From assembly GCA_942493105.1 (NCBI GenBank), contig OW818668.1, positions 300,001 to 332,000 of the forward strand: DNA of 32,000 nucleotides, given 5' to 3'. Below the pieces are notes generated by a model. That model had not been told where the DNA came from, made no database searches, and saw only the letters and a list, made by a program, of their open reading frames with translations. Within the stretch, counting starts at the first letter, position 1, and each line of letters opens with the position of its first letter. Positions 12,610 to 25,745 of this stretch are shown in pieces. The stretch comes from an uncultured Erysipelotrichaceae bacterium (lineage in GTDB: Bacteria; Bacillota_I; Bacilli_A; Erysipelotrichales; Erysipelotrichaceae). Position numbers and translations under genes: made by a program.

Positions 12610-13668
12610 CTAAAAACTTAAACTGATTGAATGCACTAAATCATCAATTTCATACTTATCTTCATTAAAAACCTGTAGACATGCATCTACGACATCGCTG
12701 CGATAAGCGATGCCTTTTCTATTTTGAATTTCACTAAGTGCAGCTTCTTTACCTAAAGAAGGACGATATGGTCGATGCGACATCATGGCTTCAACCACAT
12801 CAGCCACGATCAAGATATGACTTTCCATCAAGATCTCACTTTCAATCAGTTGTCTAGGATATCCACTGCCATCACACCGTTCATGGTGCTGGTAAATGGT
12901 TTCTGCGACCGTTTCAGGAAGATTGGATCCTTTTAATAATTCATAGCCACTAAAGGAATGATTACGTAATAGTGCCATTTCTAGATCTGTTAATTTACCT
13001 GGTTTGCTTAAGATTTCAGCAGGGATACTGATCTTACCGATATCGTGGATATAGCCTATGGTTCGTATTTCTTCTGCTTTTTGTTTAGACATGTTCATTT
13101 TTTGGGCAATGACGGCAGCTAAATTTCCTACTCGGCGTTGATGGCCTGCTGTATAGGGGTCTCTAGATTCAACGACTTGCGATAAAAGCAAAATGATGCT
13201 TTCCATAGAGTGCTGTAAGGCAAAGGTACGACGTTCAACCATTCGTTCCAAATCTCTTTGATACTCCTGATTACGACTTTCAAGTTCTCTTTTTTGATCC
13301 AACAGTTTTTTAATTTCGGCTGCTTTACGAACGATGTTTAAGAAGTCATCCTTATGAATGGGTTTACTGATGTAGTCGCTGGCGCCGTTTTGTACAGCAC
13401 TGACTGCCGTTTCTACAGTAGGTTCACCTGTCATGATGATGATTTGCAGATCACTGGATTGCTTACGCAACTTCATCATCAGTTCGATTCCGCTTCCTTT
13501 AGGCATCACAATATCCGATACGACCACATCCGGATTAAACCGTTGTGCCTCTTGATAAGCTTCATCGGCATTTGATGCACTTAAAACTTCATAGCCTTCA
13601 TTAAAAAGAAATTTACTTAAGGTTATTCGTAGTGATACTTCATCGTCAACGATCAACACTTTAGTCAT
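12610..13668 (-). CDS. Response regulator with HD-GYP output domain (RpfG-type, putative c-di-GMP phosphodiesterase)
   Basis: REC domain (VLIVDDE ... VVSDIVMPKGSG ... MTGE) followed by HDIGKISIP and HHERCDGSGYP. Start set at ATG 13668 (GGAGG RBS), overlapping the kinase stop by 8 nt. Confidence 0.85.
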   Translation of the reverse strand: MTKVLIVDDEVSLRITLSKFLFNEGYEVLSASNADEAYQEAQRFNPDVVVSDIVMPKGSGIELMMKLRKQSSDLQIIIMTGEPTVETAVSAVQNGASDYISKPIHKDDFLNIVRKAAEIKKLLDQKRELESRNQEYQRDLERMVERRTFALQHSMESIILLLSQVVESRDPYTAGHQRRVGNLAAVIAQKMNMSKQKAEEIRTIGYIHDIGKISIPAEILSKPGKLTDLEMALLRNHSFSGYELLKGSNLPETVAETIYQHHERCDGSGYPRQLIESEILMESHILIVADVVEAMMSHRPYRPSLGKEAALSEIQNRKGIAYRSDVVDACLQVFNEDKYEIDDLVHSISLSF

Positions 13669-15757
13669 GAGTTGCCTCCATAGTTTCCCATCCATTATCT
13701 ACCGTTAAGATTACTCTAAACATACTGTATTCGCCTTTTATACTGTCTACGATGATTTCTCCATGGTGGTCTTTTACGATCCCATAACTGATGGATAAAC
13801 CCAATCCTGTTCCTTTATCTTTGGCTTTGGTGGAGTAAAAAGGCTCAAATATCTTCTGTATGATTTCCTCATCGATACCGGTCCCATAATCTTTGACCGA
13901 AAGCTCGATCCATTTTCGATCATTCTCATGGGTTAGGTGTGCTCTTATCTCGATTTTCTTGAGCGGATCAGATTGAGGATATCGATCATTGAGGGCATCT
14001 CTTAAATTGGTCAACAGATTCATGAGGACTTGTTGGATCTGTTGAGAACGACATTTGAAATCAGGAAGTTCAGGATCTAATTGGATGTCCAATACAATAT
14101 TGTCCTTTTTAAAGATCACATTGGTTAGTGAGACTGTTCTGTTAACGATGTCGTAAAGACTGGCATATGAATGCGATTGTTTTTCCATACGTGCAAACTG
14201 AAGTAAGTTTCTTACGATTTCTGATATTCTTTCGGTTTCGCGAATGATTTCTTTAGCGTAGCTTTCAGTTTCTTTGACTTGACCGAGTGAGTCTACAATC
14301 AACTGGGCATAGTTCATGATCCCATTGATGGGGTTATTGATCTCATGTGCCACACCACCGGCTAAACTGCCAATGGCTTCAAGTTTTTGTTGCTGACGCA
14401 TTTGAATCTCAAATTCTTGTTTTTGTAGTTGTAAAGCTTTGGCTTCTGTTATATCCAAAGCGAAAACTATGGCACCATTCTTGTTTAGAGTTCGATAAGG
14501 AATTGCCAAAACGGTGACATCTACCGGAGTTCCATCCATTTTAAGAAAGACCTCATCGTTGGCTGGAACCATTTTTTTATCTTCGTTTAATAGCCTTATA
14601 CGCTCTTTTATGACCTCTCTTGAATCAGGGTGAAAGTGTTCCATGACTGGTTCATCAAGCAATGCCTCAGCAGTTTTAATCCCAAATAAATTACACGCCA
14701 TTTTATTTAGATAGTAAAAACGATTATCTAATTGAATGAAAATTGCATAAGGAGCATTATCTACTAATGTCTTGAATTGTATTTCGCTATTGGCGAAATC
14801 AGACTGAGCAATAATTCGATCGGTTACATCATGAATGATCGAATAGATCATGTGTTTACCTAAACGCATGACAGGACCAGAATATACTTCTACATCTCGT
14901 AATTCACCATTTGCTAGACGATGTTTGAATTCAAAATGATTCTGCTTTTCTTCGACAGCCAACTTAAGTTTTTCTTCTATTTCATCTGGTGACATGGTAT
15001 TGATTTGACTGACCTTCATACTGGTCAAAGTTTTCTTGTCCCAACCATAATAATTCTCTGAGGCTTTATTGGCATCGATGATGTTTCCCGTTTTTGGATC
15101 AAGGATCAGCATCATGGCTTGATTTAAATCAAAGAAGGAACGATATAAAGACTCTGATTCACTAAGTTTGGATACCATGTCTGCATTCTCAACTTGAGTT
15201 TGAATCAATGCACTTAAGAGTAAAGAAGCCATTGGATAAAGTACCAAAACAGGTAATCCAATATTTTTATAGGTATTCATCGCAAGATCCCAAGGTAAGA
15301 TCAACATACACAACAACATAATGACATGTGTTAATACACCAAAAACATAAAGTTTCCACGCTTTACGACGAATCTTATTGGGTGAGGAGAAAGTTCGCCA
15401 AATCAACCCAAAAGCAGTGACACTCCCTATAACAAGAACTCCTGCTAATGCTCCAACACCACCTTGATATATCCTAAACAATGCAGCCATTATGGCAGCA
15501 ATGATAGCAGGAATAGCACCTAGATATAAAGCACTGACACTTAATAAGATAGACCTTGTATCAAAAACCAGACCTTCTACGAAAGTCATGGGGTTAGTCA
15601 TGACTGTTATTGCGATCACACCTAAAATCAACCCATCGATCACATCTGAGTATTTGCTGCGTCGATGAATGATGAGATGTCCTACTTGATTCAGGATGCT
15701 GACTGAGAGTAAAAGCCCAGCATTATTGACCAATTGGCTTAAGATTTCAAGATTCAT
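13661..15757 (-). CDS. Sensor histidine kinase with 5TMR-LYT-type membrane domain and PAS domains
   Basis: 698 aa from ATG 15757 (GGGAGA RBS). N-terminal multi-TM region with FDTRSILLS, as in the LytS/YhcK 5TM receptor. Two PAS-like segments, H-box GGVAHEINNP, and an ATPase domain with DYGTGI and GTGLGLSI. Confidence 0.8.
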   Translation of the reverse strand: MNLEILSQLVNNAGLLLSVSILNQVGHLIIHRRSKYSDVIDGLILGVIAITVMTNPMTFVEGLVFDTRSILLSVSALYLGAIPAIIAAIMAALFRIYQGGVGALAGVLVIGSVTAFGLIWRTFSSPNKIRRKAWKLYVFGVLTHVIMLLCMLILPWDLAMNTYKNIGLPVLVLYPMASLLLSALIQTQVENADMVSKLSESESLYRSFFDLNQAMMLILDPKTGNIIDANKASENYYGWDKKTLTSMKVSQINTMSPDEIEEKLKLAVEEKQNHFEFKHRLANGELRDVEVYSGPVMRLGKHMIYSIIHDVTDRIIAQSDFANSEIQFKTLVDNAPYAIFIQLDNRFYYLNKMACNLFGIKTAEALLDEPVMEHFHPDSREVIKERIRLLNEDKKMVPANDEVFLKMDGTPVDVTVLAIPYRTLNKNGAIVFALDITEAKALQLQKQEFEIQMRQQQKLEAIGSLAGGVAHEINNPINGIMNYAQLIVDSLGQVKETESYAKEIIRETERISEIVRNLLQFARMEKQSHSYASLYDIVNRTVSLTNVIFKKDNIVLDIQLDPELPDFKCRSQQIQQVLMNLLTNLRDALNDRYPQSDPLKKIEIRAHLTHENDRKWIELSVKDYGTGIDEEIIQKIFEPFYSTKAKDKGTGLGLSISYGIVKDHHGEIIVDSIKGEYSMFRVILTVDNGWETMEATHD

Positions 15758-15792
15758 AAAGATCTCCCGAGTGAACTTCAAACTACACATTT

Positions 15793-15821: not shown

Positions 15822-15833
15822 AATGCAGAACAT

Positions 15834-15859
15834 TATAAAAAAACCATGATTTCTCATGG
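15834..15859 (-). terminator. Rho-independent terminator ending the radical-SAM-like operon
   Basis: On the minus strand CCATGA gaaa TCATGG is followed by seven T. The TGA stop of the 471-aa gene sits in the stem. Confidence 0.65.
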
Positions 15860-17269
15860 CGTGAAGATGATTTGAGTTTTGATGGACTCGCTTAATTTTT
15901 GAGTCAGTGGATTATCATTTAAGATTTCTTGAGGGGTCATCAAAGTATACTGAGATTCTATGGTATCTTGTGCGATCGTTGTGGCTTCTTTTAATGCAGC
16001 AATTCCTTTATCAGCACCTAAATCAAAGATCCCTTTGGTTAAACTGGTTCCGATAGACTCAGGAATACTGGTCCCCGCAATGGATGCATTTAAACTGCTC
16101 TGAAGGGTTGAGTTTAGTAAAGTCGTTGCTTCTTTAGCCCAAGCTTGATCACCATAACGATCTTTGATGGCTGTAGCGGATACATTTAGGATGGCTTTAG
16201 CTAAGTGCTTTGACTTATTCTTAGGATCTTTTCTTGCATCTTTTACACCTAAAAACATGGTCTTAAGGGCTCCATAAGCAATCTTGATTTGTGCTCCGGC
16301 AGGACCAGCCAATTCAGCTAATCCATCGATTGCGACATCAGCTCCATATTGAAGTCCTTCTGATGCTTTGGTTGCTAGTTCTCCTCGATTGGCTTTTAAA
16401 ATTTGATCATATAGTGCTTTACATTTCTTTTCATAGGCACTTTTCAATTTCTTATGTGTGGCTGCATCAGCATCAGCAACTTGCGTTTCATAATTTATCT
16501 TTTCGGTTTCCAGTTGTTTAAGTAATGCTTGGGTTTCTTCATTAGGCTGCAGTTCACCTTTAGCCAGGGCTTTATATTCACTTCGAGCATTGGCTGCCAT
16601 AAGCGTCTTATCGATATCGATTTCACGTTTTTCCAGTTCTTTGAAACACTCTAGCCAAGGATTTGCTTCAGAATTGCCAGGTTCAAACATGGGTGCCATG
16701 GACTTCAGCAAAGCCTTCTGTTCCTGTACAGTGACATAATCTGATTGATTTTGTTGGATCCATGCGTCTCTTTCAGAAATGATACTTTGTTTAGCAGTTC
16801 GATCTTGTTCAACTGATTTCTTTTGTAGCTCTATCTGTTTGAGCTGTTCAGAAAGATAATCAAGATAGGCTTTGTTTTTATCACTTTGAACTTGATATTC
16901 ACTGGTGCTCTTATCGGCTGTCTTATCAATAGTTTCCCAGTTCTTTTTTGTTTGAGCTAATTCAGATTGAAGATCTTTAGCTGCCTTTGAAAGCAAAGAC
17001 AGGGCTTCATCATAGGCATCCGTTACGATTTTCTCTTGTTGGTGGGCATCATCAATGACTCCTTCAGTTATCCTAGATGCCATTCTTTCAGATTCCATCA
17101 TCAGTTCATCATAAAGCTCATCTTGCTTTATAGACATGTTGGTTGAGCGATAACCTGTCATTAAGGTATCCAGCATAAATAAGAGTCCTGCAGTGACTGC
17201 ACTGTCAGCCAGGACTACACCAAATACTTCACTGGAAGAATTGGTAACATGATCGACTTTGATTTTCAT
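15854..17269 (-). CDS. Hypothetical 471-aa protein: short N-terminal motif, one hydrophobic segment, long coiled-coil region and an A/G/S/T-rich C-terminal region
   Basis: Start at ATG 17269 (AAGGAGA RBS), forming an ATGA overlap with the upstream stop. N-terminus is MKIKVDHVTNSSSEVF, then GVVLADSAVTAGLLFMLDTLMTGY, then about 280 aa rich in K/E/Q heptads. I recognise no family. Confidence 0.6.
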   Translation of the reverse strand: MKIKVDHVTNSSSEVFGVVLADSAVTAGLLFMLDTLMTGYRSTNMSIKQDELYDELMMESERMASRITEGVIDDAHQQEKIVTDAYDEALSLLSKAAKDLQSELAQTKKNWETIDKTADKSTSEYQVQSDKNKAYLDYLSEQLKQIELQKKSVEQDRTAKQSIISERDAWIQQNQSDYVTVQEQKALLKSMAPMFEPGNSEANPWLECFKELEKREIDIDKTLMAANARSEYKALAKGELQPNEETQALLKQLETEKINYETQVADADAATHKKLKSAYEKKCKALYDQILKANRGELATKASEGLQYGADVAIDGLAELAGPAGAQIKIAYGALKTMFLGVKDARKDPKNKSKHLAKAILNVSATAIKDRYGDQAWAKEATTLLNSTLQSSLNASIAGTSIPESIGTSLTKGIFDLGADKGIAALKEATTIAQDTIESQYTLMTPQEILNDNPLTQKLSESIKTQIIFTP

Positions 17270-18354
17270 AAATGACTCTCCTTCTGATCGAACTGGAATC
17301 GATCGCATAAGGTAATTTCAGGGATGATGGGGCATCCTGAGTAACACGATGATCTACTGCTGCAACCACTGCATTTGCCTGTCTGCCTATTTCTGAATCG
17401 ATCAAAGACTTCACAATCCCAAGCTTCTTGGATACTCATCTCATCAAGTGAAACAGAATAGGCTTCATCTTTTTCGAAACTGCATGGGATCAGTTTATTG
17501 TCTGGACTAATGTAAGCTGAGAAACGTCCGGCTTCACAAGCTTCGATACATAAAGGACTGATTTTTGTGGTCAAGTTAAGGATCGCAGGGACACAACAAC
17601 TATCGAAACCCACTTTATTTGCGATCTCTACGCGATCCATCAGTGAAAAGAAATGCTGGACTTTGGGATCTTTGATGTCTAGTACTTGATCGTATGAACC
17701 AAAGCCTACAGGTTTATGAAGCAAGAAGATGATTCGATTGATCCCATGAGGCCATGACTTGTGTTCAATCAATTCAATGGCTTCTTCAAGTGTATCTCTA
17801 GAAAGCACATAATGAATGTTGGTTTTGATTCCGTAGTCCGTTAACATTTTAATCGCATCCATTGTGTAATGATTACGATACCAACTCACTGCTACAGCTC
17901 CACAACATTGTTTAATGACCGGTAATAATTTCTTATTTAATCCATATCCTGAGGTTGTGAAATTAGGTGTGACACCATGATTATGGGCATAGGTCAATAT
18001 TTTGATGATGTCGGGATGTTGATCAGGATCACCTCTTCCACCTAAAGCAATCTGAAATGTTTTGTTTTGAGCTTGGTCGATGATCTTTGAGAAAGTCTCA
18101 AAACTCATATGATCTTCTTCTATTTCTCCGCCTTTTTGATAACACTGAACTCCAGAAGCCAAACATAAGCCGCTTTTACCGTGTTCACATGAACCCATGA
18201 TCCCAATATCCAATAACTCAGGAAAACTGCCTTGAAATGGATCTAGTCCACTATCAATGCCTTCTTTAGTAAAGGTATTGCTTCTGGCTCCTTGACCTGT
18301 CACAGGATCAAAGAAACTCACATAGCGATATAAATCATCCCATCGTTTTTTCAT
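17266..18354 (-). CDS. Radical-SAM-like enzyme with a C-terminal SPASM domain and a non-canonical N-terminal Cys triad
   Basis: 362 aa. GGRGDP (a GGEP-like SAM-binding motif) and NFTTSG are present. The C-terminus has CEAGRFSAYISPDNKLIPC and CSGCSSRSSCYSGC (CX2CX5CX3C). The N-terminal cysteines are spaced C56-x7-C64-x6-C71 instead of CxxxCxxC. Confidence 0.65.
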   Translation of the reverse strand: MKKRWDDLYRYVSFFDPVTGQGARSNTFTKEGIDSGLDPFQGSFPELLDIGIMGSCEHGKSGLCLASGVQCYQKGGEIEEDHMSFETFSKIIDQAQNKTFQIALGGRGDPDQHPDIIKILTYAHNHGVTPNFTTSGYGLNKKLLPVIKQCCGAVAVSWYRNHYTMDAIKMLTDYGIKTNIHYVLSRDTLEEAIELIEHKSWPHGINRIIFLLHKPVGFGSYDQVLDIKDPKVQHFFSLMDRVEIANKVGFDSCCVPAILNLTTKISPLCIEACEAGRFSAYISPDNKLIPCSFEKDEAYSVSLDEMSIQEAWDCEVFDRFRNRQTGKCSGCSSRSSCYSGCPIIPEITLCDRFQFDQKESHL

Positions 18355-19147
18355 GTTTGATGACTGGTTTTGGGGTCATGAATTTTAAAAGCAAGCCTAC
18401 TGCCAACAATGCAAATCCCAGGTAATATCCTCCATACATCATCTGCATCAATATCAATGGGGCATCCAACAATAAACCTAAAATAAAACCACTTAAGATC
18501 ACATAGGTATGAAAATCAGTATATCTAAAAGGTAACTTCAAAGCTTTAGCAAGATCAGAGAAAATCAAACGAGCCATCTTAAAGATCCAATGCTTACGTC
18601 CTTCACCTAATAAATAAGAGATCGTAAAGGAAATGACGACGGCAATAAAGTACTTATCGAATTTATTTCGAGCTCCACTAAAGCGACTATATGACGCAAA
18701 ATTATTCGCAATGATCAACCCAACCCCTGACCCAATCAACAAGTAAACCTTCGCATTTTGTCTTAGCGCAGAATAAGCATGGATCAGTTCAGGTTTAAGT
18801 TGTTTAATGGGACGTAATGCTTCCCCAAATCCATTCTTTTGTATTTTTAAAAATAAGCGTTTCCCAAATGTAAAGATGATGATCCAATAAATGGTCTTAG
18901 GCAAGATGTCATTATACGTTGCGGTAAGAAAAATAATCGGTCCCGATATGAATGGTGGAATATACTGACTCACTGCTCTCCACCAAAAGGCAAACTGGAA
19001 AAACAAAACGATTCCCAACTGAATGGCCAATTGCTTAGATCGTTTAGGTAGATCTCGTAATGCAGCTTTGGTGATGACCCTTATCCAAGAGAAAAATGTC
19101 TCTTTAGGTCTGGCTTCTTGAGACGTCTGATGTGAACTTGTGGTCAT
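18335..19147 (-). CDS. Hypothetical polytopic membrane protein
   Basis: 270-aa ORF with GGAGA RBS at 19153-19157 and about six hydrophobic segments. No motif I recognise. Overlaps the next gene by 20 nt. Confidence 0.6.
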   Translation of the reverse strand: MTTSSHQTSQEARPKETFFSWIRVITKAALRDLPKRSKQLAIQLGIVLFFQFAFWWRAVSQYIPPFISGPIIFLTATYNDILPKTIYWIIIFTFGKRLFLKIQKNGFGEALRPIKQLKPELIHAYSALRQNAKVYLLIGSGVGLIIANNFASYSRFSGARNKFDKYFIAVVISFTISYLLGEGRKHWIFKMARLIFSDLAKALKLPFRYTDFHTYVILSGFILGLLLDAPLILMQMMYGGYYLGFALLAVGLLLKFMTPKPVIKHEKTMG

Positions 19148-19238
19148 ATGGATCTCCTATGTTTCGTGATTGTTTGAAAGGGAGTTAGGTTGATCAACAA
19201 TAATTTTATACAGCAGTAAACATGTTCCTAATGTCTAA

Positions 19239-19266
19239 ATTATAGCACCCTGTTTAGGTCTGTCAA
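19239..19266 (-). promoter_or_regulatory. Near-consensus sigma-70 promoter for the membrane/rSAM/coiled-coil operon
   Basis: On the minus strand TTGACA (19266-19261), a 16-nt spacer, then TGC-TATAAT (19247-19239). Predicts a leader of about 85 nt. Confidence 0.65.
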
Positions 19267-19351: not shown

Positions 19352-19380
19352 TTGACAGGCGATGTATTATGGTGTATGTT
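19352..19380 (+). promoter_or_regulatory. Sigma-70-type promoter for the PadR operon
   Basis: TTGACA (19352-19357), a 17-nt spacer, then TATGTT (19375-19380). Followed by the 8-bp palindrome GTTATAAC. Confidence 0.55.
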
Positions 19381-19404
19381 ATAACCAAAGAAGGGAGTGA
19401 ATCT

Positions 19405-19725
19405 ATGAACATCACCTCTGATCTATTACGAGGACATACTGAAACCATCATCTTAAAACATCTATTAGAAAAAGACAGTTACGGCTATGAAATCAATAAA
19501 GCCATTCAAGAAAAGACAAACAATCAGTATGAACTTAAAGAAGCAACCCTCTACTCAGCCTTCAGAAGGCTGGAAACAGCTGGGCTTATCGTCTCTTATT
19601 GGGGAGATGAACAAACAGGAGCTCGCAGACGATATTATGCGATCACCAATGAAGGAAGAGCCTATTACACACAAAACCGTAAAGATTGGGAAGACGCTAA
19701 AACATTGATTGAAACATTGATCTAA
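19405..19725 (+). CDS. PadR-family transcriptional regulator
   Basis: 106 aa from ATG 19405 (AAGGGAG RBS). Contains LLRGHTETIILKHLLEKDSYGYEI and RRRYYAITNEGR, typical of the PadR winged helix. The tracked start at 19369 lies inside the promoter. Confidence 0.85.
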   Translation: MNITSDLLRGHTETIILKHLLEKDSYGYEINKAIQEKTNNQYELKEATLYSAFRRLETAGLIVSYWGDEQTGARRRYYAITNEGRAYYTQNRKDWEDAKTLIETLI

Positions 19726-19736
19726 AAAGGAGAAAC

Positions 19737-20402
19737 ATGATCACAAAAATCAGAACGTACATCAACCGTGCATTCGAAGATGTACCCAAAACAAAGAAAT
19801 CAGTAGAAATGCAGGAAGAGTTGATCAGTAACTTGATTGAAAAATTCAATGATCAACTCAAGACAGGTAAAAGTGAAGAAGAAGCGTATACAGCCGTTAT
19901 ATCAGGGATTGGCGATTTAAGTGAACTTACAGAAGGTTTAAGAGAAAGACATATCTTATCAGGTCCTACAGCTCAAGAGCGCAGACAAAGTGCATTGACC
20001 ATCGCAGTAGCCGTCATGATCTTCATTATGAGTCCTATGGCTTTGATCTTCAGTGCTGAAGTCTTAGGACAACAAACTTTAGGTTTAGTCAGTATGTTTG
20101 CCTTGATTGCTTGTGGAACAGGCTTATTGATCTTTCATTTCGCAAGTAAACCAAAATACATCAAAGATGATGAAACCATGATTGAAGAATTTAAAGAATG
20201 GAAAGCAGCAAGAGATAAAAATAAACCTCTGTTTGATGCGTTGAGTTCAGCATTTTGGTTGATTATCTTAGCCATTTACTTCTATGTTAACTTCACCTAT
20301 GGATGGTGGGCCTTCTCTTGGATCATCTTCATTATTGGAGCTGCCATCAACAACATCTTAAAAGCACTCTTCAACCTGAGTCGTAACGATCATGAGAAAT
20401 AG
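19737..20402 (+). CDS. PadR-associated membrane protein (DUF1700 / permease-prefix-like N-terminus)
   Basis: 221 aa with a soluble helical N-terminus (EMQEELISNLIEKFNDQLKTGKSEEEAYTAVISGIGD) followed by four TM segments. Position after padR is typical of this family. Confidence 0.6.
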   Translation: MITKIRTYINRAFEDVPKTKKSVEMQEELISNLIEKFNDQLKTGKSEEEAYTAVISGIGDLSELTEGLRERHILSGPTAQERRQSALTIAVAVMIFIMSPMALIFSAEVLGQQTLGLVSMFALIACGTGLLIFHFASKPKYIKDDETMIEEFKEWKAARDKNKPLFDALSSAFWLIILAIYFYVNFTYGWWAFSWIIFIIGAAINNILKALFNLSRNDHEK

Positions 20403-21306
20403 TCGCACGAAGAACGTATTTCTGATCATCATTTGGGGGTTGGTTGCAGCTGTTGCGGTATACTTCTTCAATTCAGCCATACAAAACGGAGGGTTTACTT
20501 TTCAACAAAAATACCAAGGTGAACCTACGGTTATCCTAAATGACATCACACTAAATGAAAGCATAGATTCTATTAGCATTGATTGGATTTCTGGAGGAGT
20601 AAAAATCATCCCTACCACAGGAGATAAAGTCCGCATTGTAGAAAAGTCTTATAAGATGATCGATGAAAACAAAGAAGTCAGAATAACGGTCTTGAATTCA
20701 AAACTAGAACTTGAATCACGCAATAAGGCCGTCTTCAACTTCTTGTGGTTTACCAGTACGCCTACATTTTTAGAAGTGTATCTACCGATCACTACCAGTT
20801 TCAATCTCATCAAGTTAAATGGTGTGTCTGGCAATTATAGCATCGATGAAGTCTATTCAAATCTTATTCAAATTGACATCGTTTCAGGAAACTTGACACT
20901 AGACAACAGTTTCTCAGCCTTATTATCTATGGACATGACCAGTGGAAACGCTACAATAAGCGATTCTGAGCTCTTGTCTGCAGATGTGGAGATGACTTCA
21001 GGTCAGCTCAAGTATGCGGCTAAAACCCAATCTTTTAAAGCCAGAATGACTTCTGGAACCATCAAACTAGATCTTTTGGAACAATTGCCTCAGGTACTGA
21101 ATTTAAAGTTGACCTCTGGTTCTGCAGACATCACGCTTCATGGCACAGATGGATTTAGTTTTGTGGTCAAGAAAACCTCAGGCAGTTTCACCTCTGACTT
21201 TGAAGTCATGACCAGTGGAAATACCTATACGTATAAGGCAGGTGGTCCAGTATACAATGTCGATGTGACCAGCGGAACAGTGAGTGCTCACCTAAAATCT
21301 AATTAA
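20392..21306 (+). CDS. DUF4097-family beta-strand repeat protein (LiaG/YvlB-like putative adhesin)
   Basis: 304 aa with an N-terminal TM segment and at least seven repeats of the x-(T/V)SG-x type (VSGNLTLD, MTSGNATIS, MTSGQLKY, MTSGTIKLD, LTSGSADIT, KTSGSFTSD, VTSGTVSA). Overlaps the upstream gene by 11 nt. Confidence 0.75.
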   Translation: MRNSRTKNVFLIIIWGLVAAVAVYFFNSAIQNGGFTFQQKYQGEPTVILNDITLNESIDSISIDWISGGVKIIPTTGDKVRIVEKSYKMIDENKEVRITVLNSKLELESRNKAVFNFLWFTSTPTFLEVYLPITTSFNLIKLNGVSGNYSIDEVYSNLIQIDIVSGNLTLDNSFSALLSMDMTSGNATISDSELLSADVEMTSGQLKYAAKTQSFKARMTSGTIKLDLLEQLPQVLNLKLTSGSADITLHGTDGFSFVVKKTSGSFTSDFEVMTSGNTYTYKAGGPVYNVDVTSGTVSAHLKSN

Positions 21307-22148: not shown

Positions 22149-22181
22149 AACCCTTGATGAATTCATCAAGGGTTGTTTTTT
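22149..22181. terminator. Bidirectional terminator between convergent genes
   Basis: Perfect palindrome AACCCTTGATGAATTCATCAAGGGTT (22149-22174) followed by GTTTTTT. The hydA stop is at 22180-22182. Confidence 0.8.
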
Positions 22182-23940
22182 ATTCACTTTCCAAATCTTT
22201 GAATCTGGGTTTTGCTGTGTAGTGTGTATGCAACAGTTCATGAGCCATATGACTGCCTGGTTCTTGAAGGAAGTTTTTATATAACTCTTGAATTTGAACA
22301 TTCTCATGAGATTTTCTAAATGTACGGCTCACATCTTCATCATACAAAGCATTCGCTCTGACTTTGATATAAGAAGTTCCAATGACATTACGGACGTTCG
22401 CATTGATGATGGATTGGCCACCACCGTTGACACAACCGCCTGGACAACCCATGATTTCGATGAAATGATAAGGTGATTTGCCTGCTCTGATGTCATCGAG
22501 TAAAGGTTTAGCTAATTTCATACTATGAACGACCGCTACTTTAACGATTGTCCCATTGATGTCGACTGAGGCTTCTTTGACACCATCGCCTCTAAGCGCT
22601 AGGAAGTTAACATCAGCCAAAGGTTTCTTAGTTAAGATTTCAGTTACTGTTCTTAAGGCAGCTTCCATAACTCCACCAGATGCTCCAAAGATGACACCGG
22701 CACCTGTATATTCACCAAACATGTCTTGATCAAATTCTTCATCAGGCAAGGTTGGGAAATCGATACCATAAAGCTTAATAAGTCTGCCTAATTCTCGGGT
22801 CGTCAAGACTGCATCGACATCTCGCATCTCTGTGAAATGATTGATTCGAGTCTTTTCTTCTTTTTTAGCTGTACAAGGCATGATTGAAACCACATAGACA
22901 TCTTTTGGATCAACTTGCTTGGTTTCTGCAAAGTAACTCTTTAAGATGGCTCCAAACATCATGTGTGGAGATTTACAGGTAGATACATTAGGGATCAAAT
23001 CTGGATACTCAAATTCCATATAACGGATCCATCCTGGTGAACAAGAAGTCAATAAAGGTAAGACACCCTTGTGTTTAAAGCGATGAATAAACTCAGTGCC
23101 TTCTTCCATGATGGTCAAATCAGCTGCATAGTTGGTATCATATACGCGATCAAAGCCAATTAAACGAAGTGCAGCAACCATTTTACCGGTTACACGTGTT
23201 CCAATCGGCATTCCAAATTCTTCGCCTAGTGATGCTCTAACCGCTGGAGCTGTTTGAACAACGACAACTTTCTTAGGATCATTTAAAGCATTGATGACAT
23301 CATGAATTTCTTCTTTTTCACTTAATGCCCCAACTGGACATACGTTGATACATTGCCCACATTGCATACAATTGACATCATTAAAACTTCGATCGAAAAC
23401 AGGACCAACTTTAGTTTCAAATCCTCTGTCGATAAAGTTTAGGATACCTAAGCCTTGTGTCTTTTTACATTGTTCAATACATCTTCCACACAAGATACAT
23501 TTTGAAGTATCCCTTACAATGCCTGGAGAGACTTCATCAAAGGTTTGTTTAGCCAAAGCTCCTTTGATGTAAGTATGACGCACATTAAGATCTTGAGCCA
23601 ACGTTTGAAGTTCACAGTTTTGATTACGGATACAACTTAAGCAATCTTTACTGTGATTGGATAAAATAAGCTCAACTGTTTTTCTGCGAGAAGAAATAAC
23701 ACGTTTTGAATGAGTTTGTATTTCCATGCCTTCTGAGACAGGATAATTACAAGAGGTCACCAAAGAACGAAGTCCTTTGATTTCGATGACACAGACACGG
23801 CAAGCACCAGATTGATTGATGTCTTTTAAGAAACAAAGACTGGGAACCTGAATTCCTATTTTACGGATGGCTTGTAGGACGGTTTGGTTGGCTTCAACTT
23901 CATATTCTTTGAAGTTGACCTTGATTTTTACAGTGTTCAT
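22180..23940 (-). CDS. hydA: [FeFe]-hydrogenase catalytic subunit (M3 architecture), HydA
   Basis: 586 aa with an N-terminal 2Fe-2S ferredoxin fold and accessory clusters CILCGRCIEQC and CMQCGQCINVCP. H-cluster motifs are L1 TSCSPGW (variant), L2 MPCTAKKEE and L3 EIMGCPGGCVNGGGQ. Confidence 0.9.
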   Translation of the reverse strand: MNTVKIKVNFKEYEVEANQTVLQAIRKIGIQVPSLCFLKDINQSGACRVCVIEIKGLRSLVTSCNYPVSEGMEIQTHSKRVISSRRKTVELILSNHSKDCLSCIRNQNCELQTLAQDLNVRHTYIKGALAKQTFDEVSPGIVRDTSKCILCGRCIEQCKKTQGLGILNFIDRGFETKVGPVFDRSFNDVNCMQCGQCINVCPVGALSEKEEIHDVINALNDPKKVVVVQTAPAVRASLGEEFGMPIGTRVTGKMVAALRLIGFDRVYDTNYAADLTIMEEGTEFIHRFKHKGVLPLLTSCSPGWIRYMEFEYPDLIPNVSTCKSPHMMFGAILKSYFAETKQVDPKDVYVVSIMPCTAKKEEKTRINHFTEMRDVDAVLTTRELGRLIKLYGIDFPTLPDEEFDQDMFGEYTGAGVIFGASGGVMEAALRTVTEILTKKPLADVNFLALRGDGVKEASVDINGTIVKVAVVHSMKLAKPLLDDIRAGKSPYHFIEIMGCPGGCVNGGGQSIINANVRNVIGTSYIKVRANALYDEDVSRTFRKSHENVQIQELYKNFLQEPGSHMAHELLHTHYTAKPRFKDLESE

Positions 23941-23948
23941 GATTTCAC

Positions 23949-25745
23949 CTAAGCTCTTTCAACTGCACCAAATGGGCAGTTTTGGACACAAGCTCCACAA
24001 CGAATACATTTGATCGCATCGATTACATAAGGTTCTTTGCCTAAGACGCCACTAATGGCTGATGTAGGACAACCTTTAGCACATAAACCACATTTCTTAC
24101 ATGCATCTTTATTAATGGAATAATCCAGTAATGATTTACATACTTTAGCTGGACATTTCTTATCTACCACATGGGCTAAATACTCATCTTTAAAATGTTT
24201 AAGTGTGGATAAAACAGGATTAGAAGCCGTTTGACCTAAACCGCATAATGAACTGTCTTTGACATGGATGGCCAAAGCTTCCAAATCGGTTAGGGTCTGC
24301 ATGGTTGCCTTGCCTTCACAAATATCGATCAGCATCTCCAACATACGCTTGGTTCCAATACGACAAGGTGAACATTTACCGCAAGATTCATCTACGATAA
24401 AATCCATATAGAAACGTGCCACATCGACCATACAGTTATCTTCATCTAATATGATCATACCGCCTGATCCCATCATAGAACCTAAGGCAATGAGATTATC
24501 GAAATCGATTGGGGTATCTAAATGTTCTTCGGTTAAACAACCCCCAGAAGGACCACCTGTTTGAACGGCTTTAAAATTCTTGTGTTCAGGACATCCTCCA
24601 CCGATCTCATAAATGACTTCTCTTAAAGTTGTACCCATTGGAACTTCAACTAAACCGGTATTGACGATTTTTCCGCCTAAGGCGAAAACCTTGGTTCCTT
24701 TTGATTTTTCAGTTCCTATGGATGCAAACCAATCTGCCCCTTGATTGATGATGGCAGGAATATTCGCAAATGTTTCCACATTATTGATGATGGTTGGTTT
24801 GCCCCATACGCCTTTTACAGCAGGAAATGGAGGCTTGACACTAGGCATACCGCGTCTGCCTTCTATTGATGCGATCAATGCGGTTTCTTCACCACAGACG
24901 AAAGCACCCGCTCCTAAACGAATTTCAATATCAAACTTAAATCCGGTATTGAAAATGTTCTTACCTAGCATCCCATATTCCTCAGCTTGACCGATCGCGA
25001 TTTTTAAACGTTCAACAGCGATCGGATACTCAGCACGGATATACACATAACCATGGTTAGCTCCAATCGCATAACCAGCAATCGCCATAGCTTCAATGAC
25101 AGAGTGTGGATCGCCTTCCAAAATAGAACGATCCATAAATGCTCCTGGATCTCCTTCATCCGCATTACAAATAACGTACTTTTCATCATTGACTTGATTG
25201 GCTGCAAATTGCCACTTATTTCCAGTAGGAAAACCACCGCCTCCACGTCCTCTTAATCCAGAACGTTTCATCTCGTCTATGACATTTTGCGGAGTCATAC
25301 TCGTCAGTACTTTCGCTAAAGCTTGATAACCATCTAGGGCTATATATTCAGTTACATCTTCAGGGTTGATCAATCCGCAATTGCGTAAGGCAATGCGTTG
25401 TTGTTTCGCATAGAATTTGATCTTTTCAAATTCAAAAATCTTTTCTTTGGTTTCTTCATCGATGTCTGTGATTTCTAAACGTTTGACTGGACGTCCTTTA
25501 TACAGATGTTCATTGACGATCTCATCGATATCCCCTAAAGTAACATGACTATAGAAAACTTTATCAGGATGGATCGCAATGATTGGACCTTTTTGGCATA
25601 ATCCAAAACAGCCTGTCTTAACGACTTTGACTTCGTTTTGAAGATCCTTCATCTTGATGACTTCTTCAAGACGTTTAACGAGCTCTAATGATTTAGAAGA
25701 GGTACAGCCTGTACCAGCACAGACCAAAACATGTGTTCTTTCCAT
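23949..25745 (-). CDS. hydB: NuoF-like flavoprotein subunit of a bifurcating-type hydrogenase, HydB
   Basis: 598 aa with an N-terminal thioredoxin-like 2Fe-2S domain (CAGTGC ... CFGLC) and an FMN/NADH module GRGGGGFPTGNKW. The N3-type cluster is SCGKCSPCR, and there are two C-terminal ferredoxin motifs, CKKCGLCAKGCP and CIRCGACVQNCP. Confidence 0.9.
   Translation of the reverse strand: MERTHVLVCAGTGCTSSKSLELVKRLEEVIKMKDLQNEVKVVKTGCFGLCQKGPIIAIHPDKVFYSHVTLGDIDEIVNEHLYKGRPVKRLEITDIDEETKEKIFEFEKIKFYAKQQRIALRNCGLINPEDVTEYIALDGYQALAKVLTSMTPQNVIDEMKRSGLRGRGGGGFPTGNKWQFAANQVNDEKYVICNADEGDPGAFMDRSILEGDPHSVIEAMAIAGYAIGANHGYVYIRAEYPIAVERLKIAIGQAEEYGMLGKNIFNTGFKFDIEIRLGAGAFVCGEETALIASIEGRRGMPSVKPPFPAVKGVWGKPTIINNVETFANIPAIINQGADWFASIGTEKSKGTKVFALGGKIVNTGLVEVPMGTTLREVIYEIGGGCPEHKNFKAVQTGGPSGGCLTEEHLDTPIDFDNLIALGSMMGSGGMIILDEDNCMVDVARFYMDFIVDESCGKCSPCRIGTKRMLEMLIDICEGKATMQTLTDLEALAIHVKDSSLCGLGQTASNPVLSTLKHFKDEYLAHVVDKKCPAKVCKSLLDYSINKDACKKCGLCAKGCPTSAISGVLGKEPYVIDAIKCIRCGACVQNCPFGAVERA

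Follow-up and report, generated by a model that had tools for sequence, protein, structure and literature searches.

Radical S-adenosylmethionine (SAM) enzymes carrying a SPASM domain are a main source of new peptide chemistry, and to our knowledge nearly all of their substrates are either short leader-core peptides or a single dedicated protein. QhpD is a SPASM enzyme that modifies a protein subunit, QhpC of quinohemoprotein amine dehydrogenase, encoded in the same operon as partner proteins, while triceptides and dynobactin are characterized by cross-links on three-residue aromatic-X-X motifs. Outside radical chemistry, phage T4 provides a case with its internal proteins, where otherwise unrelated, fast-evolving phage proteins in tandem arrays share a short conserved tag at the N-terminus. 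The system described here is a three-gene operon on the minus strand of a 32,000-nucleotide stretch (the window) of contig OW818668.1, from an uncultured Erysipelotrichaceae bacterium. It encodes a polytopic membrane protein (gene 1), an atypical radical-SAM/SPASM enzyme (gene 2), and a 471-residue protein (gene 3) that begins with a conserved 16-residue tag. Probably, the downstream protein is a substrate whose free N-terminal tag is recognized by the enzyme and altered in its invariant core by radical chemistry, so that the operon would constitute a dedicated protein-maturation module. An enzyme-substrate relation best explains the combination of a maturase-type fold with conserved cluster ligands, a strict and modular association between enzyme and tag, and the service of many tags by one enzyme.

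The association between enzyme and tag was examined in 80 loci fetched from a genome census with one representative per species, together with the window, and in a further 80 viral loci. Among the 81 loci of the first set, 75 contain a same-strand open reading frame (ORF) starting exactly with M-K-x-[RK]-x-D-[FYH]-V-T-N-S-S-S-x-x-[FY], usually as the next gene after the enzyme and with a 4-nt overlap with the enzyme stop. In the six-frame translation of 867 kb, the core motif has 98 matches, 97 of them exactly six codons downstream of a start codon, and because the distance of the tag from the start is fixed, the N-terminus itself appears to be part of the recognition. The codons of the invariant T, N, S, S, and S use all synonymous forms, both serine codon families included, so selection acts on the tag as a peptide; selection on DNA or RNA is ruled out by the same diversity. 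A scan seeded with the tag pattern collected 120 stretches, with the enzyme present in 67, and no orphan tag is demonstrated, since none of the 53 enzyme-less stretches has at least 6 kb on both sides. A tag-profile search of a 5.8-billion-protein set returned 68 candidates of 33-77 aa, apparently cut-down versions of longer families, which, being few, short, and truncated-looking, say little on distribution.

In the window, the sole tag match is the start of gene 3 and no short tag-bearing ORF occurs; no conserved short precursor was found either, in agreement with the first-pass annotation, which had seen no plausible precursor peptide. The tag falls within no Pfam or NCBIfam model, and only phrog_7397, whose function is unannotated, touches it. 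The tag motif was not found in the open-access literature text searched, which likewise offered nothing relevant on non-canonical or phage SPASM enzymes.

Relatives of the enzyme are present in 456 species-representative genomes and 305 IMG/VR viral contigs, and the family comprises 419 clusters at 50% identity (E<=1e-30). Among the carriers are cultured bacteria such as Lacrimispora amygdalina, Flavonifractor sp. An92, and Clostridiales bacterium CCNA10. The genes had initially been described as an orphan operon, a label that falls because the enzyme family has hundreds of members; the system is widespread and apparently undescribed. Its loci form two classes. Membrane-class loci (40) have a hydrophobic helix directly behind the tag and a gene 1 homologue in front of the enzyme; soluble-class loci (30) encode soluble tagged proteins and lack gene 1. 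Of the 80 genome loci, 43 carry a gene 1 homologue, which invariably stands immediately upstream of the enzyme and is restricted to loci whose tagged protein has a transmembrane (TM) segment. The co-occurrence of both neighbors with the enzyme, proposed at the outset as a check, is seen in every informative membrane-class locus (40/40), in the order membrane protein, enzyme, tagged protein, mostly with 4-nt overlaps. The few discordant loci show a truncated flank or borderline hydropathy; in one, L036, the membrane gene is missing and a TM-tagged protein lies upstream. A neighbor-joining tree of the enzymes groups the membrane-class sequences together, and the soluble-class sequences likewise. 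The earlier proposal that the neighbors serve as substrate or partner is thus supported, with a refinement: the tag follows the enzyme family-wide, but the coiled-coil body and the membrane protein are class-specific. By this sequence comparison, the universal partner is the tag and not the coiled coil.

Viral contigs belong mostly to the soluble class, and 75 of the 80 viral loci carry one to eight tagged genes; one enzyme gene is followed by different tagged genes, often of the same six families in the same order. In the viral locus L094 (2624-14691 of IMGVR_UViG_3300029305_011225), the enzyme lies among accessory genes that include a vWA-like protein, a protein that by eye is PurA/PurZ-like and bears the adenylosuccinate synthetase motif GDEGKG, eight tagged small acidic proteins, and, after these, a large ORF. 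Cultured-phage records contain distant T4-like relatives of the enzyme only, and a tagged phage-type protein used as query gave no match in them.

A fourth gene of about 313 aa, absent from the window, lies just downstream of the tagged protein in 16 membrane-class loci: L014 (8727-9680), L017, L020, L023-L025, L029, L031, L038, L044-L047, L051, L056, and L069. It bears a faint likeness to the type VII secretion chaperone EspG (Pfam 9e-6 in 1 of 16 members; PDB EspG1, E 0.05), and the family has no significant match in the PDB sequence-profile search.

The AlphaFold2 (AF2) model of the enzyme, built from 71 homologues, has a mean predicted local distance difference test (pLDDT) score of 92.7 and a predicted TM-score (pTM) of 0.90. 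It adopts the radical-SAM partial TIM-barrel fold, with a Foldseek probability of 1.00 to SuiB, PqqE, anSME, viperin, and MoaA. The top PDB matches are SuiB, PqqE, anSME, CteB, TigE, ChlB, and SkfB (E 3e-12 to 6e-8, TM-score ~0.6), with E values of 2.8e-12 for SuiB, 4e-11 for PqqE, ~4e-10 for anSME (4k37-4k39), and 1e-9 for CteB. Pfam SPASM (PF13186) matches above threshold at 26.5 bits against a cut-off of 21.5 (E 7.9e-6), and the SPASM model TIGR04085 is borderline at 26.6 against 27. Within the 71 sequences, C56, C64, C71, Y72, and Q73 of the N-terminal loop are invariant, as are C253, C273, C291, C328, C337, C341, and C350 of the SPASM region, with C331 conserved in at least 90%. The GGRGD motif is also invariant and sits where the usual GGE SAM-binding motif would be. 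Distant relatives show either CX3CX2C-YQ (P0258, and P0274 once its intein is removed) or CX7CX2C (T4-like phages) at the cluster position, and for this reason C56, C64, and C71, spaced as CX7CX6C, are read as an expanded radical-SAM cluster loop.

The NCBIfam equivalog scores of the enzyme fall far short of the cut-offs throughout, the best being MftC (TIGR03962) with 50.7 bits against 265. Searches of Pfam, NCBIfam, PADLOC, and PHROGs gave generic SPASM and radical-SAM matches only, in addition to phrog_7293, whose function is unannotated. The enzyme had been called an atypical SPASM protein from the outset, a description upheld by the above-threshold SPASM match together with the replaced CX3CX2C motif; its position relative to characterized families had been set beforehand as decisive, and the profile and Foldseek searches placed it in none. 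Judged on its sequence, it belongs to no characterized family, since the defining features all fail: the cysteine motif, an equivalog match, a short precursor, a RiPP recognition element (RRE; RiPP, ribosomally synthesized peptide with post-translational modifications), and a sulfatase motif. A new family is proposed, defined by the CxHGxxGxCxxxGxxCYQ loop and an adjacent tag-starting gene, both of which are present in the window. The enzyme N-terminus, MKKRWDDLYRYVSFF (18354-18310; family M-x-x-x-x-D…F15), loosely resembles the tag start MKIKVD…F16 (17269-17222), a likeness that may be due to chance or may hint at strand pairing between both N-termini.

Several points weigh against catalysis on the tag. 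The canonical CX3CX2C motif is absent, and Pfam Radical_SAM (PF04055) reaches 26.2 bits against a gathering threshold of 29.5 (E 1e-5) over residues 71-150 only; because the alignment begins at residue 71, it leaves the CX3CX2C region unmatched. Owing to the missing motif and the sub-threshold score, the enzyme could be a non-catalytic pseudo-radical-SAM protein. Pfam and NCBIfam reveal no RRE or PqqD-like recognition domain, and the N-terminal 50 residues form just three short strands in the AF2 model. AF2 modeled the 471-aa protein with low confidence (pLDDT 59), the model yielded only meaningless helical matches in Foldseek, and the conserved motifs of the gene 1 product include no recognizable catalytic or binding set. 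A cytoplasmic tag is needed by the model, yet the charge bias of the 471-aa protein, with a net charge of 0 before the TM helix and -3 after it, favors a cytoplasmic N-terminus weakly.

The absent motif and the Radical_SAM score are also what lends substance to an alternative in which the tag is a docking or targeting peptide and the SPASM protein either an Fe-S hub or chaperone devoid of catalytic activity or an enzyme whose target is another molecule, with recruitment of tagged proteins serving assembly, membrane insertion, or packaging. The relative P0255 (494 aa) would suit such a role, having lost all three N-terminal cluster cysteines while keeping the SPASM cysteines and gaining a C-terminal extension of ~150 aa; it may be a degenerate pseudo-enzyme. 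The T4 capsid-targeting sequence offers a precedent for a conserved N-terminal tag on unrelated phage proteins, and tight translational coupling would suit a stoichiometric complex. This alternative is nevertheless unlikely, given that all 11 cluster-ligand cysteines and GGRGD are conserved in the 71 sequences and that each of the nearest folds belongs to an active maturase of peptides or proteins. Up to eight tagged genes are served by a single enzyme gene, for which reason a catalyst is favored over a stoichiometric partner. Inteins in relatives argue in the same direction, as they sit exactly at the cluster and GGRGD motifs.

These inteins interrupt P0214, P0222, P0258, P0318, and P0274. 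Four are large and stand immediately before the ALGG(R)G(D/E)P motif (…Q|C…HN|CALGG…), and one lies at the third cysteine of the cluster motif. The size of the large inteins suggests that they carry a homing endonuclease. Inteins typically occupy catalytic sites, and the positions observed fit essential catalytic motifs and a phage-linked, mobile history.

The proteins behind the tag are highly diverse. After trimming of the first 20 residues, 391 tagged proteins fall into 45 families, and hhalign detected homology in 1 of 91 pairs among the 14 largest. The bodies comprise coiled-coil membrane proteins, BspA-type leucine-rich repeats (LRR), BRCT, Tcp10_C repeats, zinc-ribbon-like proteins, and many small acidic proteins, with LRR_5, BRCT, and Tcp10_C among the Pfam domains detected, and the tag-bearing genes encode 82-882 aa. 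This diversity bears on the idea that the tag is a leader only and that the enzyme modifies variable residues downstream, following the leader/core logic of RiPPs. RiPP precursors usually have a conserved leader and a variable core, and multiple paralogous precursors beside one maturase would be in keeping with that logic. Downstream proteins from at least 45 families, folded LRR and BRCT proteins included, however leave no common core, and in the window class a membrane helix follows the tag immediately. The most invariant residues, T-N-S-S-S, are moreover chemically plausible targets and atypical for leaders, and a leader-only tag is accordingly rated as rather improbable.

Tagged proteins could also share a small domain with a function of its own, for example a phosphate-binding loop, to which the tag would contribute the first strand and loop, with the adjacency reflecting a common pathway. 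Soluble members do have beta-strand-like hydrophobic residues (F-[IV]-[IL]-x) after the tag, and phrog_7397 aligns with some small tagged proteins over up to ~90-166 residues. The near absence of homology beyond residue 20 between families led to the rejection of this explanation by hhalign after tag trimming; the same tag stands in front of architectures as different as LRR, BRCT, and coiled coil, has a TM helix behind it in the window class, and is left unstructured by AF2 (residues 1-12 of the 471-aa protein are disordered), making a shared domain very improbable. That three functionally unrelated genes stand side by side fortuitously is barely credible, as gene order, strand, and 4-nt overlaps are conserved over Bacillota, Chloroflexota, Actinomycetota, and viral contigs. 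Both the shared-domain and the chance-adjacency explanations are largely excluded.

Under the favored reading, that of an enzyme acting on the tag, gene 2 would encode a three-cluster radical-SAM/SPASM enzyme with its SAM-cluster loop expanded to CX7CX6C, and its substrate would be the flexible 16-residue N-terminal tag with the invariant core [F/Y/H]-V-T-N-S-S-S. The free N-terminus would thread into the barrel in an anSME-like manner, without an RRE domain, and a hydrogen atom would be abstracted from the invariant core. The outcome could be a short-range cross-link to the aromatic residue 7 or 16, of the cyclophane or ether type found in triceptides, darobactin, and dynobactin, or alternatively an oxidation of serine or threonine of the anSME type; the aromatic-V-T and N-S-S-S elements suggest one of these two reactions. 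In the window class, the tag would be a short tail on the cytoplasmic side of a bitopic protein whose body is long and helical. The co-translated membrane protein would be a class-specific partner that, to go by the co-occurrence pattern, most likely either holds enzyme and substrate together at the membrane or pairs with the anchor helix. In its widest form, the proposal is that a portable 16-residue tag marks unrelated proteins for radical modification by one dedicated CX7CX6C SPASM enzyme, thereby creating a common chemical handle or cross-link, and that the system is shared by anaerobic bacteria, with the membrane partner, and by phages, with cassettes of up to eight tagged genes; the chances of this being correct are considered about even.

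The two proteins flanking the enzyme remain unfamiliar, as the first-pass annotation had stated. The gene 1 product contains at least 5-6 hydrophobic segments and carries the family motifs FLTATYN, ANNFASYSRFSGARNKxDKYF, GEG, and GY, and it is without a relative in Pfam, NCBIfam, PADLOC, PHROGs, or PDB sequence-profile searches. The 471-aa protein likewise has no match in Pfam, NCBIfam, PADLOC, or PHROGs and no significant PDB sequence-profile match, and all of its homologues found (27/27) are named hypothetical or uninformatively. Its AF2 model contains a confident long helical hairpin at residues ~75-190, and its C-terminus is a conserved Gly/Ala/Lys-rich helical region with the motifs GADxAVDxL and GPAGxxIKxAY.

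The layout of the locus is summarized in the table below. The promoter, the three overlapping genes, the terminator, and the MFTAV mini-ORF reported previously are all present on the minus strand and form one tightly packed transcription unit.

Table. Positions in the window of the operon, its regulatory elements, and the protein segments discussed.
Feature	Position	Strand	Details
Sigma-70-type promoter	19239..19266	-	TTGACA (19266-19261), 16-nt spacer, TGcTATAAT (19247-19239), extended -10
5' leader, ~90 nt	19148..19238	-	MFTAV mini-ORF (19223-19206, 5 codons) and gene 1 ribosome-binding site (GGAG)
Gene 1, 270-aa polytopic membrane protein, uncharacterized family	18335..19147	-	ORF, hydropathy, homologues
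Gene 2, 362-aa atypical radical-SAM/SPASM enzyme	17266..18354	-	Pfam, AF2, Foldseek, homologues
Putative cluster loop C-x-H-G-x2-G-x-C-x3-G-x2-C-Y-Q, residues 56-73 of gene 2	18136..18189	-	CX7CX6C in place of CX3CX2C
SPASM region, residues 253-350 of gene 2	17305..17598	-	C253, C273, C291, C328, C331, C337, C341, C350; includes CX2CX5CX3C
Gene 3, 471-aa tagged protein	15854..17269	-	Tag, one TM helix, all-alpha/coiled-coil body, Gly/Ala-rich helical C-terminus
N-terminal tag, residues 1-16 of gene 3: MKIKVDHVTNSSSEVF	17222..17269	-	Family consensus M-K-[IVFY]-[RK]-x-D-[FYH]-V-T-N-S-S-S-[SET]-x-[FY]
TM segment, residues 15-33 of gene 3, directly after the tag	17171..17227	-	Hydropathy 2.06; AF2 helix 13-42
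Intrinsic terminator	15833..15860	-	7-bp stem (15860-15843), 4-nt loop, T-run

The promoter scores 12/12 with the TG element and is the sole perfect site among the 9 kb scanned (13-22 kb). Promoter-like sites in the region number 21 against 27.6 expected, and because they are not enriched overall, weight is given to the perfect site alone. No Rfam family matched the leader, and a riboswitch or other RNA element was sought there without success. Genes 1 and 2 overlap by 20 nt, and the conserved start of gene 3 is the ATG at 17269, with an ATGA overlap with the gene 2 stop and a ribosome-binding site (GGAG) upstream; a longer gene 3 ORF of 484 aa from 17308 is without homologue support.

The flanks consist of ordinary anaerobe chromosomal genes, and the operon lies in a chromosomal, non-prophage context. 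Divergent from it on the plus strand (19369-21306) are a PadR-family regulator (19369-19725), a 221-aa membrane protein (19737-20402), and a DUF4097 'toastrack' protein (20392-21306); this cluster has its own promoter-like site at 19352-19380 and is not conserved beside operon homologues. Directly past the terminator on the minus strand (12610-15790) lie a 5TM-LYT/PAS histidine kinase (13661-15790) and a response regulator with an HD-GYP-type HD_5 domain (12610-13695), overlapping by 35 nt. Further away, again on the minus strand (22180-25745), the large subunit of an [FeFe]-hydrogenase with N-terminal ferredoxin-like domains (22180-23940) adjoins a NuoF-like flavoprotein (23949-25745), a pair that fits a strictly anaerobic host. 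No flanking gene of the window recurs beside operon homologues, so the three genes constitute a self-contained module, as had been supposed from the window itself.

A modular N-terminal tag on dozens of unrelated families would extend SPASM logic to whole proteins. Should the enzyme-substrate relation be true, the tag would provide a defined, synthesizable 16-mer for finding a new radical reaction, with MKIKVDHVTNSSSEVFG as the synthetic tag peptide, and possibly a genetically encodable tool for N-terminal protein modification, and it would point to an as yet unexplored function that anaerobes of gut and sediment share with their phages. With its invariant CX7CX6C, the family is also a documented exception to the CX3CX2C rule, one that is conserved and workable.

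Among known systems, anSME is similar in being a SPASM radical-SAM enzyme with two auxiliary clusters and no RRE, in targeting a short Ser/Cys-containing motif of a full-length protein, and in ranking among the top structural matches. It differs in possessing CX3CX2C and in recognizing an internal motif, (C/S)-x-(P/A)-x-R, in one protein family, whereas in the system of the window the motif is a 16-mer confined to the N-terminus and shared by at least 45 families, of which almost none show detectable homology to one another. The anSME model TIGR03942 gives 10.6 bits against a cut-off of 349 with the window enzyme, and the tag is without a sulfatase motif.

The radical-SAM/SPASM maturases of RiPPs (SuiB, PqqE, CteB, MftC, DynA, and the triceptide 3-CyFEs) provide the best fold matches and share the feature of adjacent, often multiple, substrate genes; the [F/Y/H]-V-T core also resembles the aromatic-X-X motifs mentioned above. 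They act on short peptides in which a leader at the N-terminus precedes a core at the C-terminus, and an RRE is present in most of these enzymes, whereas the window system is without RRE, short peptide, or leader, and its conserved element lies at the extreme N-terminus of full-size proteins. In contrast to MftC, the neighbors of the window enzyme are the membrane and tagged proteins and not MftA/MftB.

The T4 capsid-targeting sequence parallels the viral cassettes of tagged genes, but it is recognized by the scaffold and the prohead protease and involves no radical-SAM enzyme; unlike the T4 tag, the present one is also met with on chromosomes outside prophages, as in the window. Among annotated viral proteins, the nearest relatives of the enzyme are the phrog_7293 proteins of T4-like phages of Klebsiella, Cronobacter, and Enterobacter (29% identity across 84% of its length, E 6.8e-26), which share the expanded first spacer as CX7CX2C and are annotated as hypothetical. 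Relatives of this type occur in Klebsiella phage KP27 (L081, 3872-5041) and 171 other phage records, and no tagged neighbor genes were seen around the KP27 homologue. pVip in PADLOC is a weak partial match (27.9 bits, residues 71-209); viperins rank under the SPASM maturases in Foldseek and, unlike the window enzyme, have no SPASM domain.

QhpD, compared by description, differs in its single dedicated substrate, its multiple internal Cys-Asp/Glu thioethers, and its lack of a portable tag. Overall, the system is a further form of the radical-SAM/SPASM maturase-substrate theme, most like the action on proteins seen in anSME-sulfatase and QhpD-QhpC.

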